Virus record (IMG/VR): IMGVR_UViG_3300017978_000263 | Location: 1-37,355 of that record | Reading direction: 5' to 3' (one strand) | DNA length: 37,355 bases | From: a virus | Shown: in pieces, positions 1 to 37,355 of the stretch | Layout of the letters: each line of letters opens with the position of its first letter | How positions within the stretch are numbered: position 1 is the first letter of the stretch | Program-made: the position numbers and the translations under genes | The notes under the pieces: model-generated | What the model was told of the DNA's origin: nothing | Database searches by the model: none | What the model saw: only the letters and a program-made list of their open reading frames with translations

Positions 1-58
1 CTACGACAAACTATCTGCTGTCACGGAAACACACCCATTAGACTTTCGTCGTGGACAG
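1..58. repeat. Terminal overlap copy 1 (identical to 37298-37355); circular closure of the contig
   Basis: Bases 1-58 (ctacgacaaactatctgctgtcacggaaacacacccattagactttcgtcgtggacag) recur exactly at 37298-37355. The repeat lies inside an ORF. Confidence 0.95.
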
Positions 59-14093: not shown

Positions 14094-14246
14094 CTAGAAG
14101 AATAGTATTGCTATGTTAAAGAATCCTAAGTGGATGAGGATAGCTTGACAGAACTCATACTCATCTTCATCAGTCTCTACTATGGCCTCATCTGTGTGGA
14201 TAATACCTAGTACAAGACCTCCTGACCAGTTAAAATCAATAATCAT
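14094..14246 (-). CDS. Small hypothetical protein (50 aa), last gene of the leftward arm
   Basis: Not in the track (<60 aa). ATG 14246 overlaps the upstream stop (ATGA) and is preceded by AAGGA. Translation: MIIDFNWSGGLVLGIIHTDEAIVETDEDEYEFCQAILIHLGFFNIAILFF, stop TAG at 14094-14096. Confidence 0.45.
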   Translation of the reverse strand: MIIDFNWSGGLVLGIIHTDEAIVETDEDEYEFCQAILIHLGFFNIAILFF

Positions 14247-26594: not shown

Positions 26595-26758
26595 TTTGTA
26601 ACCTCTTGCATTCTTGTCGTTATGTCCATCAACACTTTTAATTGACCGTAAACAACCATTAATTCTACGACATCATTAATCGTGTGAACGTAATGTGCTT
26701 CCTCTTGGTCTTCTTGTTGTTCCATCATGTCAATGGCTAAAGCCTTCATTTTTCCCAT
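26591..26758 (-). CDS. Hypothetical acidic protein (55 aa)
   Basis: Not in the track. ATG 26758 is preceded by AAAGGGG. Translation: MGKMKALAIDMMEQQEDQEEAHYVHTINDVVELMVVYGQLKVLMDITTRMQEVTK. Confidence 0.45.
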   Translation of the reverse strand: MGKMKALAIDMMEQQEDQEEAHYVHTINDVVELMVVYGQLKVLMDITTRMQEVTK

Positions 26759-26776
26759 GTTGTACCCCTTTTACTT

Positions 26777-26819
26777 TTAAGACTACTACTTAGTATGACT
26801 TTATTAAGTAGTATCTTAA
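26777..26819. repeat. 15/16-bp AT-rich inverted repeat separated by 12 nt
   Basis: ttaagactactactta (26777-26792) and taagtagtatcttaa (26805-26819) are reverse complements apart from one indel. It lies in the intergenic space between two early genes. Confidence 0.7.
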
Positions 26820-26842
26820 ATAGTGTATTTACATTAAAGATC

Positions 26843-27103
26843 TTAAACATCATAGTCCTCTATAGAGTCTACTACATAGCTATATAGTGCATCAATGTCC
26901 TCTAGGGAATCCCCTGTGTCCATATCGTCATCTATGGTGTCTAAGTCCTGCTCAGTGATTAAGTCTTTACGATCAATGACTGATACAAAAGGTTTAATAT
27001 CTTCGAAACAAGTCTTACAAAGGTCGATAAACTTGAACGTATGCGCGTCTTTTCTAGTCGCCTCATAGTCGGTCAATAGTTTGTCACAAGCTGTACAGTG
27101 CAT
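26843..27103 (-). CDS. Zinc-ribbon protein with extremely acidic C-terminal tail (86 aa)
   Basis: CTAC...CKTC (two C-x2-C pairs), then DLITEQDLDTIDDDMDTGDSLEDIDALYSYVVDSIEDYDV. Confidence 0.6.
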   Translation of the reverse strand: MHCTACDKLLTDYEATRKDAHTFKFIDLCKTCFEDIKPFVSVIDRKDLITEQDLDTIDDDMDTGDSLEDIDALYSYVVDSIEDYDV

Positions 27104-27347
27104 TTTAAGTCCTTAGGTAGGCGCAGGTATTACCCTACTGGTTTTAGAGCCTTCTAGCCCACTTAGAAGCCCTTAGAAGGGTGCTTCAGGTGTCTTATCT
27201 CGTTGTTGTTTATTGTATTCTCTCACTTGCTCAGGTGTCCACGGCTTAGGTGGGCATTCAGAAGGGAAAGGCCATGTATAGTGTTGTATTTTCACCACAA
27301 GTCATGCTCCGTGATTAGATCAATGGCGAATAGAATGATAATCATTG

Positions 27348-29633: not shown

Positions 29634-29858
29634 TTATTGGGTGATGAGGTGAACGAGACGATCAGCCGCTTCGAGGCGCGTGGTGCGGTCTGTGGACTGC
29701 ATGAGATCAGCACAGAGACGCATCTCACGGATGATCTGAGCGATGTAGCGAGCGTTCGCTCCGTCGGTGGTTTCACGGCTCCACATGGTGTGCGCTACGG
29801 CCTCCAGTTTGTCCATGGTCTGCTCGATTGAGCGGAGTTCTTGTGATGTGAATGTCAT
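29634..29858 (-). CDS. First early gene, hypothetical protein (74 aa), GC-rich
   Basis: The preferred start is ATG 29858 (MTFTSQELRSIEQ...), preceded by CTAAGGATCAGATC. G+C is about 59% by hand count over 29641-29820, against about 42% at 29401-29460. Confidence 0.5.
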   Translation of the reverse strand: MTFTSQELRSIEQTMDKLEAVAHTMWSRETTDGANARYIAQIIREMRLCADLMQSTDRTTRLEAADRLVHLITQ

Positions 29859-29927
29859 GATCTGATCCTTAGTTGATGACATGGCGTTGTTGCCATGCTA
29901 GAGACTATGCACAGAGTATGCCAGCTT

Positions 29928-29938
29928 GAACCTTACAA
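29928..29938 (-). repeat. Inverted satellite copy of the 9-mer array unit (TTGTAAGGTTC on the minus strand)
   Basis: The plus strand gaaccttacaa (29928-29938) is the reverse complement of ttgtaaggttc, which is identical to the last 11 nt of the array (30230-30240). Confidence 0.7.
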
Positions 29939-29961
29939 GTACTTTGTAGGATATGCTCAGG

Positions 29962-30053
29962 TTATCCACAGTCAGACATGGCTCTGTTACTGGGTTTGTA
30001 TATAGTTATCCACAAGCTGATAAGATATCCACAGCTTACAATGGTTATCCACA
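29962..30053 (+). promoter_or_regulatory. Cluster of four same-orientation DnaA boxes (candidate replication origin / DnaA-responsive control region)
   Basis: TTATCCACA at 29962-29970, 30006-30014 and 30045-30053 (perfect), and ATATCCACA at 30025-30033 (8/9). All are on the plus strand. They match the consensus TTATCCACA of bacterial DnaA boxes. Confidence 0.6.
30033..30042 (-). repeat. Second inverted satellite copy of the 9-mer unit (ATTGTAAGCT on the minus strand), between DnaA boxes 3 and 4
   Basis: The plus strand agcttacaat (30033-30042) is the reverse complement of attgtaagct, which occurs in the array at the unit 5/6 boundary. Confidence 0.6.
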
Positions 30054-30176
30054 GGTAGCACTAGACTGGTGCATTTATGTCTCATGTTGGTGCATGAGGT
30101 TGCTATGATGCACTGAATAGGTGCTTAGGCCTGGCGTGCTTGGGTGTACGTAATAGGTGCTACATTGCCCCTCACG

Positions 30177-30239
30177 TGTAAGCTTTGTAAGTATTGTAAG
30201 GAATGTAAGACTTGTAAGTATTGTAAGCTTTGTAAGGTT
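30177..30239. repeat. Tandem array of seven 9-bp units TGTAAGnnn (iteron-like)
   Basis: tgtaagctt tgtaagtat tgtaaggaa tgtaagact tgtaagtat tgtaagctt tgtaaggtt, with no gaps. Units 1 and 6 are identical, as are units 2 and 5. Confidence 0.95.
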
Positions 30240-30337
30240 CGTTACTGACTCGATAGTCATTAGTGATGGGGGGAGGGGGTAGGGCTTTGGTGTTACTTTT
30301 GTGGGAGCCTCTAAAGCATACAAAAAAGTCAATGGAG

Positions 30338-30434
30338 GAATAGATAAGTAGAGACTAAAAAGCTAATGAAATCAATAAACTTAACATAATAATTAGGGAC
30401 AGGTCTGAATAGATACGTAATGTAGACTAGAAAG
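30338..30434. repeat. Imperfect direct repeat pair in the AT-rich part of the hub
   Basis: gaatagataagta-gagactaaaaag (30338-30362) and gaatagatacgtaatgtagactagaaag (30407-30434). Confidence 0.6.
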
Positions 30435-30493
30435 TGGACACAGGAGCCTGCCATAGGGTCTCATGAGAGGGCTATGATGTGGACACAAGAGCC
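30434..30493. repeat. 15-bp direct repeat GTGGACACA(G/A)GAGCC x2, 45 bp apart, flanking the palindrome TCTCATGAGA
   Basis: Copies at 30434-30448 and 30479-30493, with the palindrome at 30459-30468. The second copy, TGTGGACAC, is a 7/9 match to the reverse DnaA box TGTGGATAA. Confidence 0.65.
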
Positions 30494-30551: not shown

Positions 30552-30579
30552 TTGACAAATGAGAAAAGAGGTATACAAT
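30552..30579 (+). promoter_or_regulatory. Sigma70-type promoter P1 for the rightward (terminase/late) arm
   Basis: TTGACA (30552-30557), 16-nt spacer, TACAAT (30574-30579). It shares the gcTTGACAAA context with P2. Confidence 0.6.
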
Positions 30580-37178: not shown

Positions 37179-37355
37179 ATGGACAAAGACCTATACGCTC
37201 CAAGGGAGCTAGAACGATTTTACGAGGATGCCTTCTCAATGATGTCCACTCAAGGGTGGAAGGATCTGATGGAAGACATCGAGCGTGTAAAGAATAACTA
37301 CGACAAACTATCTGCTGTCACGGAAACACACCCATTAGACTTTCGTCGTGGACAG
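37179..37355 (+). CDS. 5' part of the wrap-around ORF that ends at 142
   Basis: The ATG 37179 frame stays open to the window end and continues at base 59 after removal of the 58-bp overlap. Confidence 0.6.
   Translation, partial: MDKDLYAPRELERFYEDAFSMMSTQGWKDLMEDIERVKNNYDKLSAVTETHPLDFRRGQ
37298..37355. repeat. Terminal overlap copy 2 (identical to 1-58)
   Basis: Exact 58-bp identity with the window start. Confidence 0.95.

Follow-up and report, generated by a model that had tools for sequence, protein, structure and literature searches.

DnaA boxes, the sites of the host initiator DnaA, are known from the origins of plasmids and prophages and from phage lambda. In P1 oriR, RK2 oriV and pSC101 such boxes assist a separate system of initiator and iterons, and in lambda DnaA affects the promoter pR, whose transcription is needed for the initiation of replication. 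In classical sigma-54 promoters, the stretch between the core promoter and the enhancer is occupied by IHF. To our knowledge, DnaA boxes are not a hallmark of any lytic phage group that carries its own T7-type replisome, and for lytic phages the open-access literature that we found held only predictions made with Ori-Finder-style software. The control hubs of the phages described here combine DnaA boxes with sigma-54-type early promoters and NtrC-like enhancers.

The stretch analysed was the IMG/VR record IMGVR_UViG_3300017978_000263, positions 1 to 37,355, which is called the window throughout. Its termini overlap by 58 bp, so that the window closes on itself and represents a complete genome of about 37.3 kb. 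The genes are arranged in two divergent arms, and the meeting point of the arms is referred to as the hub. The contents of the arms are as follows:

14.1-29.9 kb, leftward arm: small early ORFs, gp4-type primase-helicase, PolA, endonuclease VII, 5'-3' exonuclease, T7-type endonuclease I, ThyX and ribonucleotide reductase
Start of the rightward arm: probable small terminase (TerS), TerL and portal
Rightward arm, across the junction: T7 Gp10A-like capsid protein, SU10-type adaptor and tail proteins

The primase-helicase matched phrog_239 (E = 1e-191) and, along with PolA, endonuclease I, the exonuclease and the Gp10A-like capsid protein, it makes up a T7-type replisome and capsid. A single-subunit phage RNA polymerase had no match in Pfam or PHROGs (the longest ORF has at most 711 aa), and when the tested ORFs were scanned against Pfam and PHROGs, no integrase, Rep-type initiator or enhancer-binding ATPase (bEBP) was found. 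Given this replisome and capsid and the lack of an RNA polymerase and an integrase, the phage is probably a virulent podovirus which is not T7-like in gene order or transcription. An earlier note on this DNA had described a T7-like lytic phage with its own gp4-type primase-helicase, PolA and exonuclease; these enzymes are all present together with endonuclease I, and the likeness to T7 extends to replisome and capsid but not to an RNA polymerase or to the layout in two divergent arms. Several of the small early ORFs are without annotation. No relatives at the DNA level were found among cultured phages, and at the protein level the relatives are distant, with identities of at most 38% for TerL, about 25% for the portal and about 50% for the primase-helicase. 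An exact-protein look-up of TerL gave no match. MW202701, a distant relative with annotation, shares the divergent layout and has no boxes.

The elements of the hub and its borders, from left to right, are:

29634-29882, minus strand: first leftward (early) ORF, 82 aa, no family match, ATG at 29882
29908-29923, minus strand: sigma-54-type early promoter TGGCAT-ACTCT-GTGCA (TGGCATACTCTGTGCA), GG-N10-GC, just upstream of the first early gene
29932-29938, minus strand: inverted TTGTAAG, abutting the -24 element of the sigma-54-type promoter
29962-29970, plus strand: DnaA box 1, perfect TTATCCACA, least conserved of the four and degenerate (7-8/9) in the five closest hubs
30006-30014, plus strand: DnaA box 2, perfect TTATCCACA, perfect in 6/6 class-A hubs
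30025-30033, plus strand: DnaA box 3, ATATCCACA, 8/9 with the mismatch at position 1
30035-30041, minus strand: inverted TTGTAAG between boxes 3 and 4, with GCTTAC invariant in class-A hubs
30045-30053, plus strand: DnaA box 4, perfect TTATCCACA, 3 bp from dyad 1
30057-30161, no strand assigned: enhancer-like zone with NtrC-type dyads, consensus TGCACY-N5-GGTGCW
30057-30073: dyad 1, one mismatch to this consensus
30089-30094: half-site GGTGCA within the enhancer-like zone
30109-30125: dyad 2, no mismatch, the only perfect TGCACYN5GGTGCW in the window
30145-30161: dyad 3, two mismatches to TGCACY-N5-GGTGCW
30177-30240, plus strand: TGTAAG array of seven units with a 9-bp period, in a variable "array slot"
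30268-30328, plus strand: G-run element, G-run GGGGGGAGGGGG followed by a conserved element ending ACAAAAAAG
30335-30400, no strand assigned: AT-rich tract of lowest stability in the hub, in which one 40-bp window ranks as the fifth least stable in the genome
30552-30579, plus strand: sigma-70 promoter, near-consensus TTGACA-16-TACAAT, directed towards the terminase and structural genes

The first leftward ORF has an alternative start at 29868 after an AAGGA ribosome-binding site. The array slot is filled in other members of the family by DnaA-box arrays, sigma-54 promoter arrays or other repeats. The G-run element is conserved across the family (TerL identities of 50-100%), and a sigma-70 promoter comparable to that at 30552-30579 is present upstream of TerS in distant relatives.

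Set against the 9-mer TTATCCACA and the pattern TTWTNCACA, the cluster consists of three perfect boxes and one 8/9 box (box 3, the equivalent of which in the relative L046 is TTATGCACA), with start-to-start spacings of 44, 19 and 20 bp, and every testable sequence feature of a DnaA-box cluster was found in it. Perfect boxes number four in the whole 37.4-kb window, three of them inside 92 bp, against 0.35 expected from dinucleotide-preserving shuffles of the window (n=100), none of which reached four. The coordinates, sequences, single strand and spacings agree exactly with the earlier note, and so does its statement that the clustering cannot be chance, for which it had proposed a scan against shuffled controls; the scan confirmed the excess. 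The boxes had been placed 80-170 bp upstream of the first early gene, and the measured distance from the ATG at 29882 is 80-171 bp. Inverted copies of the neighbouring iteron unit had also been reported among the boxes and were located as the TTGTAAG sites at 29932 and 30035; this motif occurs 15 times in the window and seven times in the hub, with five copies in the plus-strand array and two inverted.

To follow the boxes through the phage family, 278 related stretches were collected from IMG/VR on the basis of TerL. About half of the hubs in the clade of the window carry two to five boxes and about half carry none, the latter including L001, whose TerL is 100% identical to that of the window. 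A scan of the whole of IMG/VR for two perfect boxes 8-14 bp apart returned at least 120 loci, and among the matches listed 28 of the first 120 encode TerL/TerS related to those of the window at 50-75% TerL identity, so that the family makes up a hugely disproportionate share of the viral contigs with paired boxes. All 28 loci have their boxes in the interval from TerS to the early genes, where they often form arrays of 6-13, mostly perfect, the largest being those of L167 (13 boxes), L155 (12), L094 (11) and L143 (10). The L094 clade was then sampled by TerL alone (at least 600 stretches), and in the 49 hubs with enough upstream sequence, nine had 7-11 boxes, six had two or three and 34 had none or one. 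Arrays nearly always end 8-30 bp from a G-run (GGGGGAGGG), which is followed by about 40 bp ending in CACAAAA(A/T)AG, AT-rich DNA, a near-consensus sigma-70 promoter and TerS, and members differ in how the boxes are oriented to the G-run and AT tract. The family control hub appears to recruit host DnaA repeatedly, and some arrays match in density those sought in bacterial genomes. When early ORF clusters were compared with the presence of boxes no co-variation was obtained, the one weak signal (p = 0.008, uncorrected) being one of about 45 tests and confounded by phylogeny. Box arrays with an 11-bp period were found in bacterial genomes of many phyla and in one small plasmid, and no member of the phage family was present among the bacterial contigs with such arrays; as so many phyla matched, the arrays were uninformative for inferring the host. 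The class-A module had no match in 185,579 species genomes, and capture of a host oriC fragment was discarded as its source. The family comprises hundreds of contigs, with no cultured member in the collections searched.

The sites are very probably genuine DnaA-type boxes under selection, conserved or re-invented in the relatives, and we hold it highly likely, from their sequence and pattern of variation, that the four boxes of the window bind host DnaA. With the hub taken as the 450 bp to the left of the conserved G-rich element (30263-30327 in the window), perfect boxes in relatives occur at 2.07/kb in hubs against 0.016/kb elsewhere (32 in 15.5 kb and 6 in 384 kb, respectively), a difference of about 130 times. 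Among the 27 imperfect (8/9) hub boxes the mismatch is at position 5 in 13 and at position 1 in eight, and in none is it at positions 2, 3, 7 or 9, whereas chance 8/9 matches outside hubs have mismatches at all positions, mostly 2, 3, 6, 7 and 8. The hub profile is that tolerated by DnaA (TTWTNCACA; R2-type TTATACACA), which is a strong argument for DnaA as the selective agent. Co-oriented neighbouring boxes show spacing peaks at 11-12, 19-23, 30-34 and 43-44 bp, which correspond to helical phasing. It is very improbable that the sites belong instead to a phage-encoded DNA-binding protein whose sites resemble DnaA boxes, or that the cluster arose by chance. For a phage protein it can be said that the flanks of the boxes are partly conserved too (aG-box-GGtt) and that in class-A hubs the sequence separating the boxes does not vary either. 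Yet the 9-mer is identical to the DnaA consensus, its tolerated variants are those of DnaA (position 5; the R2 type), and it recurs in at least four unrelated arrangements and both orientations, including clades with TerL only 50% identical and with different early genes, while no early ORF co-varies with it. Chance is excluded by the density in hubs and by the shuffles.

The first early gene is preceded by a motif of the sigma-54 type, with which the published consensus (-24 GG, -12 GC; TGGCAC-N5-TTGCW; PMC8743547) agrees. The pattern TGGCAYN6TGCW has a single match in the window, at 29908-29923 on the minus strand, and transcription from it would start near 29897. The motif is found in the same slot and on the same strand, with varied spacers, in 20 of 33 related hubs without mismatch and in one more with one mismatch, so that the sequence features of a sigma-54 promoter come together with a placement ahead of the regulated gene that is conserved in position and strand. 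Its density in the L094 clade is 2.14/kb in hubs against 0.019/kb outside (113x), some hubs carrying nine such motifs. More distant relatives have a sigma-70 promoter, TTGACA-16-TAnnnT, in this slot, which identifies the slot as that of the early promoter. A weak leftward sigma-70 promoter candidate proposed earlier, CTGACT-16-TATCCT at 29975-29948, is present in the sequence, but it scored below the scan threshold and relatives do not conserve its -35 part, the sigma-54-type element being found instead.

The putative NtrC-like dyads lie at about -160 to -265 from the predicted start, and the boxes fill about -65 to -156, between the sigma-54 core promoter and the putative enhancer. NtrC sites have the published consensus TGCACCAnnnTGGTGCA. 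Within the hub of the six class-A phages, conservation is highest from box 2 through dyad 2 and extends to the spacers, and box 1 is perfect in the window only. In 10 distinct hubs the gap between a DnaA box and the homologous dyad is exactly 3 bp, with the box on the plus strand in six and on the minus strand in four. As the distance is kept and the orientation is not, this arrangement points to a local interaction of DnaA with whatever binds the dyad. The dyads could alternatively be operators or iterons of a phage protein and not sites of the NtrC type.

On these motifs, their conservation and their geometry, a DnaA-gated early enhancer-promoter switch is the best-supported mechanism for the window, although we put it forward tentatively. 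The boxes would be part of an enhancer-promoter unit that drives the early leftward genes, in which the order upstream from a start at about 29897 would be the sigma-54-type core, a TTGTAAG site, DnaA boxes 1-4 and three to four NtrC-type dyads. Boxes 2-4 are about two helical turns apart (19-20 bp) and, judged from the spacing, DnaA would sit on about the same face of the helix at each of them, taking the stretch that belongs to IHF in classical sigma-54 promoters, with box 4 almost touching dyad 1. A phased DnaA oligomer may bend or stiffen the DNA between enhancer and promoter, and DnaA may compete or cooperate with the activator at dyad 1, so that the sign of its effect could be activation or repression. 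In that case the DnaA status of the host, in addition to a sigma-54 activator, would govern the onset of the phage programme. Early transcription may also feed the initiation of replication, as does DnaA-stimulated pR for oriλ, since loading of a T7-type replisome requires DNA that has been opened or transcribed.

The switch is favoured by the observations that no unstable DNA adjoins the boxes and that the ORFs scanned gave no match to a phage RNA polymerase, an initiator or an enhancer-binding protein, and the possibility of DnaA-gated early transcription, named in the earlier note as an alternative, fits the local anatomy well, with boxes between a sigma-54-type promoter and NtrC-like dyads. 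IHF-assisted sigma-54 promoters of the glnHp2 and nifH type with NtrC/NifA enhancers are similar in having a -24/-12 core, dyads 100-250 bp upstream that the dyads of the window match in consensus, and the site of an architectural protein in between; they differ in that the window has DnaA boxes and no IHF site, that the operon is the early operon of a lytic phage and that dependence on an activator is predicted. The lambda pR/ori-lambda region also has host DnaA sites in a phage control region close to an early promoter, but pR is of the sigma-70 class and lambda encodes an initiator (O) and a helicase loader (P) of its own, whereas here the promoter is of the sigma-54 type, the replisome is of the T7 type and no initiator was seen. 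A non-exhaustive search of open-access papers yielded no report of a sigma-54 promoter on which DnaA acts, and no natural sigma-54-dependent phage early promoter was found in the open-access literature. Against a promoter-specific role, the arrays of 6-13 boxes adjoin the G-run at a long distance from a sigma-54 promoter or in hubs without one, and in L234 the boxes lie downstream of the sigma-54 promoter; with these other positions in the family, a strictly promoter-specific role is insufficient. The arrays phased at 11 bp moreover look like platforms for DnaA oligomerisation more than like bending sites.

The main rival to the switch, possible but in our judgement doubtful, is an auxiliary origin element like those of plasmids, in which DnaA on the boxes would help to open the G-run/AT-rich region for a self-loading gp4-type helicase-primase and for PolA. 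Such an element would suit a phage that has no RNA polymerase or recognisable initiator and yet a T7-type replisome in need of opened DNA. The hub is the point at which the arms diverge and the minimum of cumulative GC skew; however, the skew switch coincides with the switch in transcription direction, which explains it equally well and leaves it uninformative on an origin. The order of boxes, repeat arrays, G/C-rich block and AT-rich tract is the same as in P1 oriR, RK2 oriV and pSC101, where the boxes are likewise auxiliary and tolerant of position, and the direct repeats, boxes and AT-rich region of an iteron origin are all present, but the period of the TGTAAG repeats is 9 bp against iterons of about 20 bp, no Rep gene was found next to them among the scanned ORFs, and the setting is a lytic podovirus with its own replisome. 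The AT-rich tract at 30335-30400 is the only candidate unwinding element of the hub. In oriC-type origins the boxes are flanked directly by such an element, whereas box 4 is 290 bp away from it, with the TGTAAG array (in the slot beside the G-run) and the G-run between, and the box zone itself has 40-44% GC and the average composition and duplex stability of the genome. The oriC and P1 oriR architecture proposed in the earlier note fails on this distance and on the Pfam and PHROG scans, which found no Rep-type initiator gene. At the level of the family several features speak for an origin: the arrays of 6-13 mostly perfect boxes are phased at 11 bp and stand 8-30 bp from the G-run, followed by AT-rich DNA, many bacterial genomes and one small plasmid also have consensus boxes arranged at 11 bp, the 2-bp gap of this arrangement is that of the low-affinity DnaA sites of E. 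coli oriC, and the box arrays share their slot with other iteron-like arrays of sister phages, as in the exchange of modules at origins. The likeness to the basal unwinding system of bacterial oriC thus lies in consensus boxes in helical phase and in 11-bp arrays beside G-rich and AT-rich DNA; unlike in oriC, no unwinding element adjoins the boxes of the window, no DnaA-trio periodicity was seen on inspection of its sequence, box orientation to the G-run and AT tract is not conserved in the family, and nearly all boxes are of consensus strength as against the mixture of strong and weak boxes in oriC-type origins. Boxes are also absent from L001, from about half of the clade of the window and from about 70% of the L094 clade, and no early gene co-varies with their presence. 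Comparison of the hubs of relatives, for which the earlier note had proposed an alignment, showed the boxes to be kept in class A and to recur in distant clades, but not to be kept in L001, and as relatives with identical TerL do without them, they are not the indispensable core of an origin.

This free presence and absence among near-identical phages is what would be expected of an accessory takeover trait, and the boxes may act as a DnaA sponge, the hundreds to thousands of consensus boxes on amplified genomes titrating DnaA and blocking initiation in the host, though we consider this unlikely. Almost all boxes are of the highest-affinity type, their number ranges from 0 to 13 per genome and their orientation and exact position are free. 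High-affinity boxes outside an origin are also found in E. coli datA and in the DnaA-box clusters of Bacillus subtilis, but these are chromosomal and regulate the initiation of the cell itself, whereas the present boxes are phage-borne, and no record of a DnaA sink carried by a phage was present in the literature found. Where a hub has no box array, it often has three to nine sigma-54 motifs, some on alternating strands, which could be read as decoys for a second host factor. It is similarly improbable, but conceivable, that the hub arrays in general are interchangeable decoy cassettes of up to 13 DnaA boxes or up to nine sites for sigma-54 holoenzyme; if so, DnaA or sigma-54 RNA polymerase would be sequestered and host initiation or the sigma-54 regulons shut down, a host takeover by DNA rather than by protein. 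A pure sink, however, has no need of the strong positional preferences observed (arrays abutting the G-run, a box 3 bp from a dyad in 10 hubs), and the phage of the window has only four boxes. T7 endonuclease I and exonuclease degrade host DNA, and as the phage encodes enzymes of this type, control of host initiation would be less useful to it. The hub is the only sizeable non-coding region, and clustering of the boxes there is neither for nor against a sink.

If the switch is confirmed, a virulent phage would couple the onset of its programme, or else its replication, to two sensors of the host, which would be replication status through DnaA and nutrient status through the sigma-54 activator. 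The hub would offer a synthesisable element of 300 bp for studying the interplay of DnaA with an enhancer, DnaA-assisted loading of a gp4-type helicase or DnaA titration, and hubs with DnaA boxes define a large uncultured phage family.

When the hub was scanned for Rfam families and tRNAs, only a sub-threshold M-box match was obtained, which was taken as chance, and no RNA pairs were predicted in the G-run element across 23 diverse sequences. Contigs ending at the G-run had been considered as genome termini, but the distance from TerL at which near-full-length relatives begin is not constant, and the two ends of the window join; the contig ends at the G-run are better explained as assembly breaks at the junction of conserved and variable sequence or at the poly-G run.

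Features around the DnaA boxes in the non-coding control region (hub) between the divergent arms, and further sites elsewhere in the genome, were located as follows:

14195-14203, minus strand: a perfect DnaA box, the genome's sole one besides those of the hub, in the convergence zone of the arms on the far side from the hub
26750-26900: intergenic tract of very high AT content (26% GC) on the upstream side of the primase-helicase gene
27212-27241, minus strand: sigma-70-like promoter TGGACA-18-TACAAT, with the preceding tract downstream of it
29908-29923, minus strand: sigma-54-type early promoter, by match to TGGCAY-N6-TGCW
30057-30161: three NtrC-type dyads (TGCACY-N5-GGTGCW) and one half-site, by motif match
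30177-30240: seven TGTAAG units, repeated at the unusual period of 9 bp; 29932 and 30035 mark inverted copies
30246-30259: perfect palindrome TGACT-CGAT-AGTCA, just left of the G-run
30268-30328: G-run (GGGGGGAGGGGG) and a further 40 bp or so with ACAAAAAAG at the end
30435-30448 and 30480-30493: TGGACACARGAGCC, present twice at an interval of 45 bp in the stretch that separates the hub's AT-rich tract from the sigma-70 promoter
30552-30579, plus strand: near-consensus sigma-70 promoter TTGACA-16-TACAAT, with the small terminase gene about 270 bp downstream

The sigma-54-type early promoter was also found among the hubs of the related phage loci L001-L080 and L202-L281, the motif being matched without mismatch in 20 of 33 close hubs and with one mismatch in a further hub. 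In the L094 clade, a group of related phages sampled by large terminase (TerL), the density of the motif in hubs was 113 times that outside hubs, and individual hubs (L259-L266) had as many as nine copies, with the strand alternating. The number of copies per hub tends to be low where DnaA arrays are large (Spearman -0.30, p = 0.04, with no phylogenetic correction). The scan of the phage ORFs detected no gene for an enhancer-binding ATPase. The NtrC-type dyads were kept in many relatives; in the corresponding region, L057, L058 and L080 have TGT-N10-ACA-type dyads, and L054 and L076 have GATAC-N8-GTATC dyads. Dyad 4 overlaps a conserved TGcTACATT, which could be an extended -10 promoter directed rightward. 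Distant relatives carry a consensus sigma-70 promoter similar to that upstream of the terminase. The arrangement is odd in that the strongest sigma-70 promoter serves the structural genes while the early genes use the sigma-54-type promoter.

The G-run element was conserved in all clades, at TerL identities of 50-100%, and no RNA structure was predicted in it. The G-run may be akin to R-loop-forming primer sites, of which mitochondrial CSB II is an example. The element also contains the GGAGCC motif of the repeats at 30435-30493, and several relatives, among them L014, L016 and L022, retain the adjacent palindrome in the form TGACT-N4-AGTCA. A number of IMG/VR contigs terminate no more than 40 bp from this element, and these ends are taken to be assembly breaks. 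The slot holding the TGTAAG units was mosaic among relatives. Both inverted TTGTAAG copies, one near the promoter and the other between boxes 3 and 4, are perfect, and such copies were retained at 5/6 sites in phages with the TGTAAG array versus 1/6 in phages without it.

Outside the hub, the perfect box at the point of convergence may be a chance occurrence, as 0.35 perfect boxes are expected genome-wide. The AT-rich tract near the primase-helicase gene includes the 40-bp window that ranks third in the genome for low stability. Together with the promoter at 27212-27241 it may form an origin of the T7 style, which combines a promoter with an AT-rich tract. The first 58 bp of the window (1-58) recur unchanged as its last 58 bp (37298-37355), so the assembly closes into a circle, giving a genome of 37,297 bp. 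In bacteria, triple DnaA-box arrays at 11-bp spacing occurred in more than 120 genome contigs of many phyla, and the 3.8-kb plasmid pSOE2 of Candidatus Pantoea edessiphila (L326) carries four runs of three perfect boxes at this spacing.
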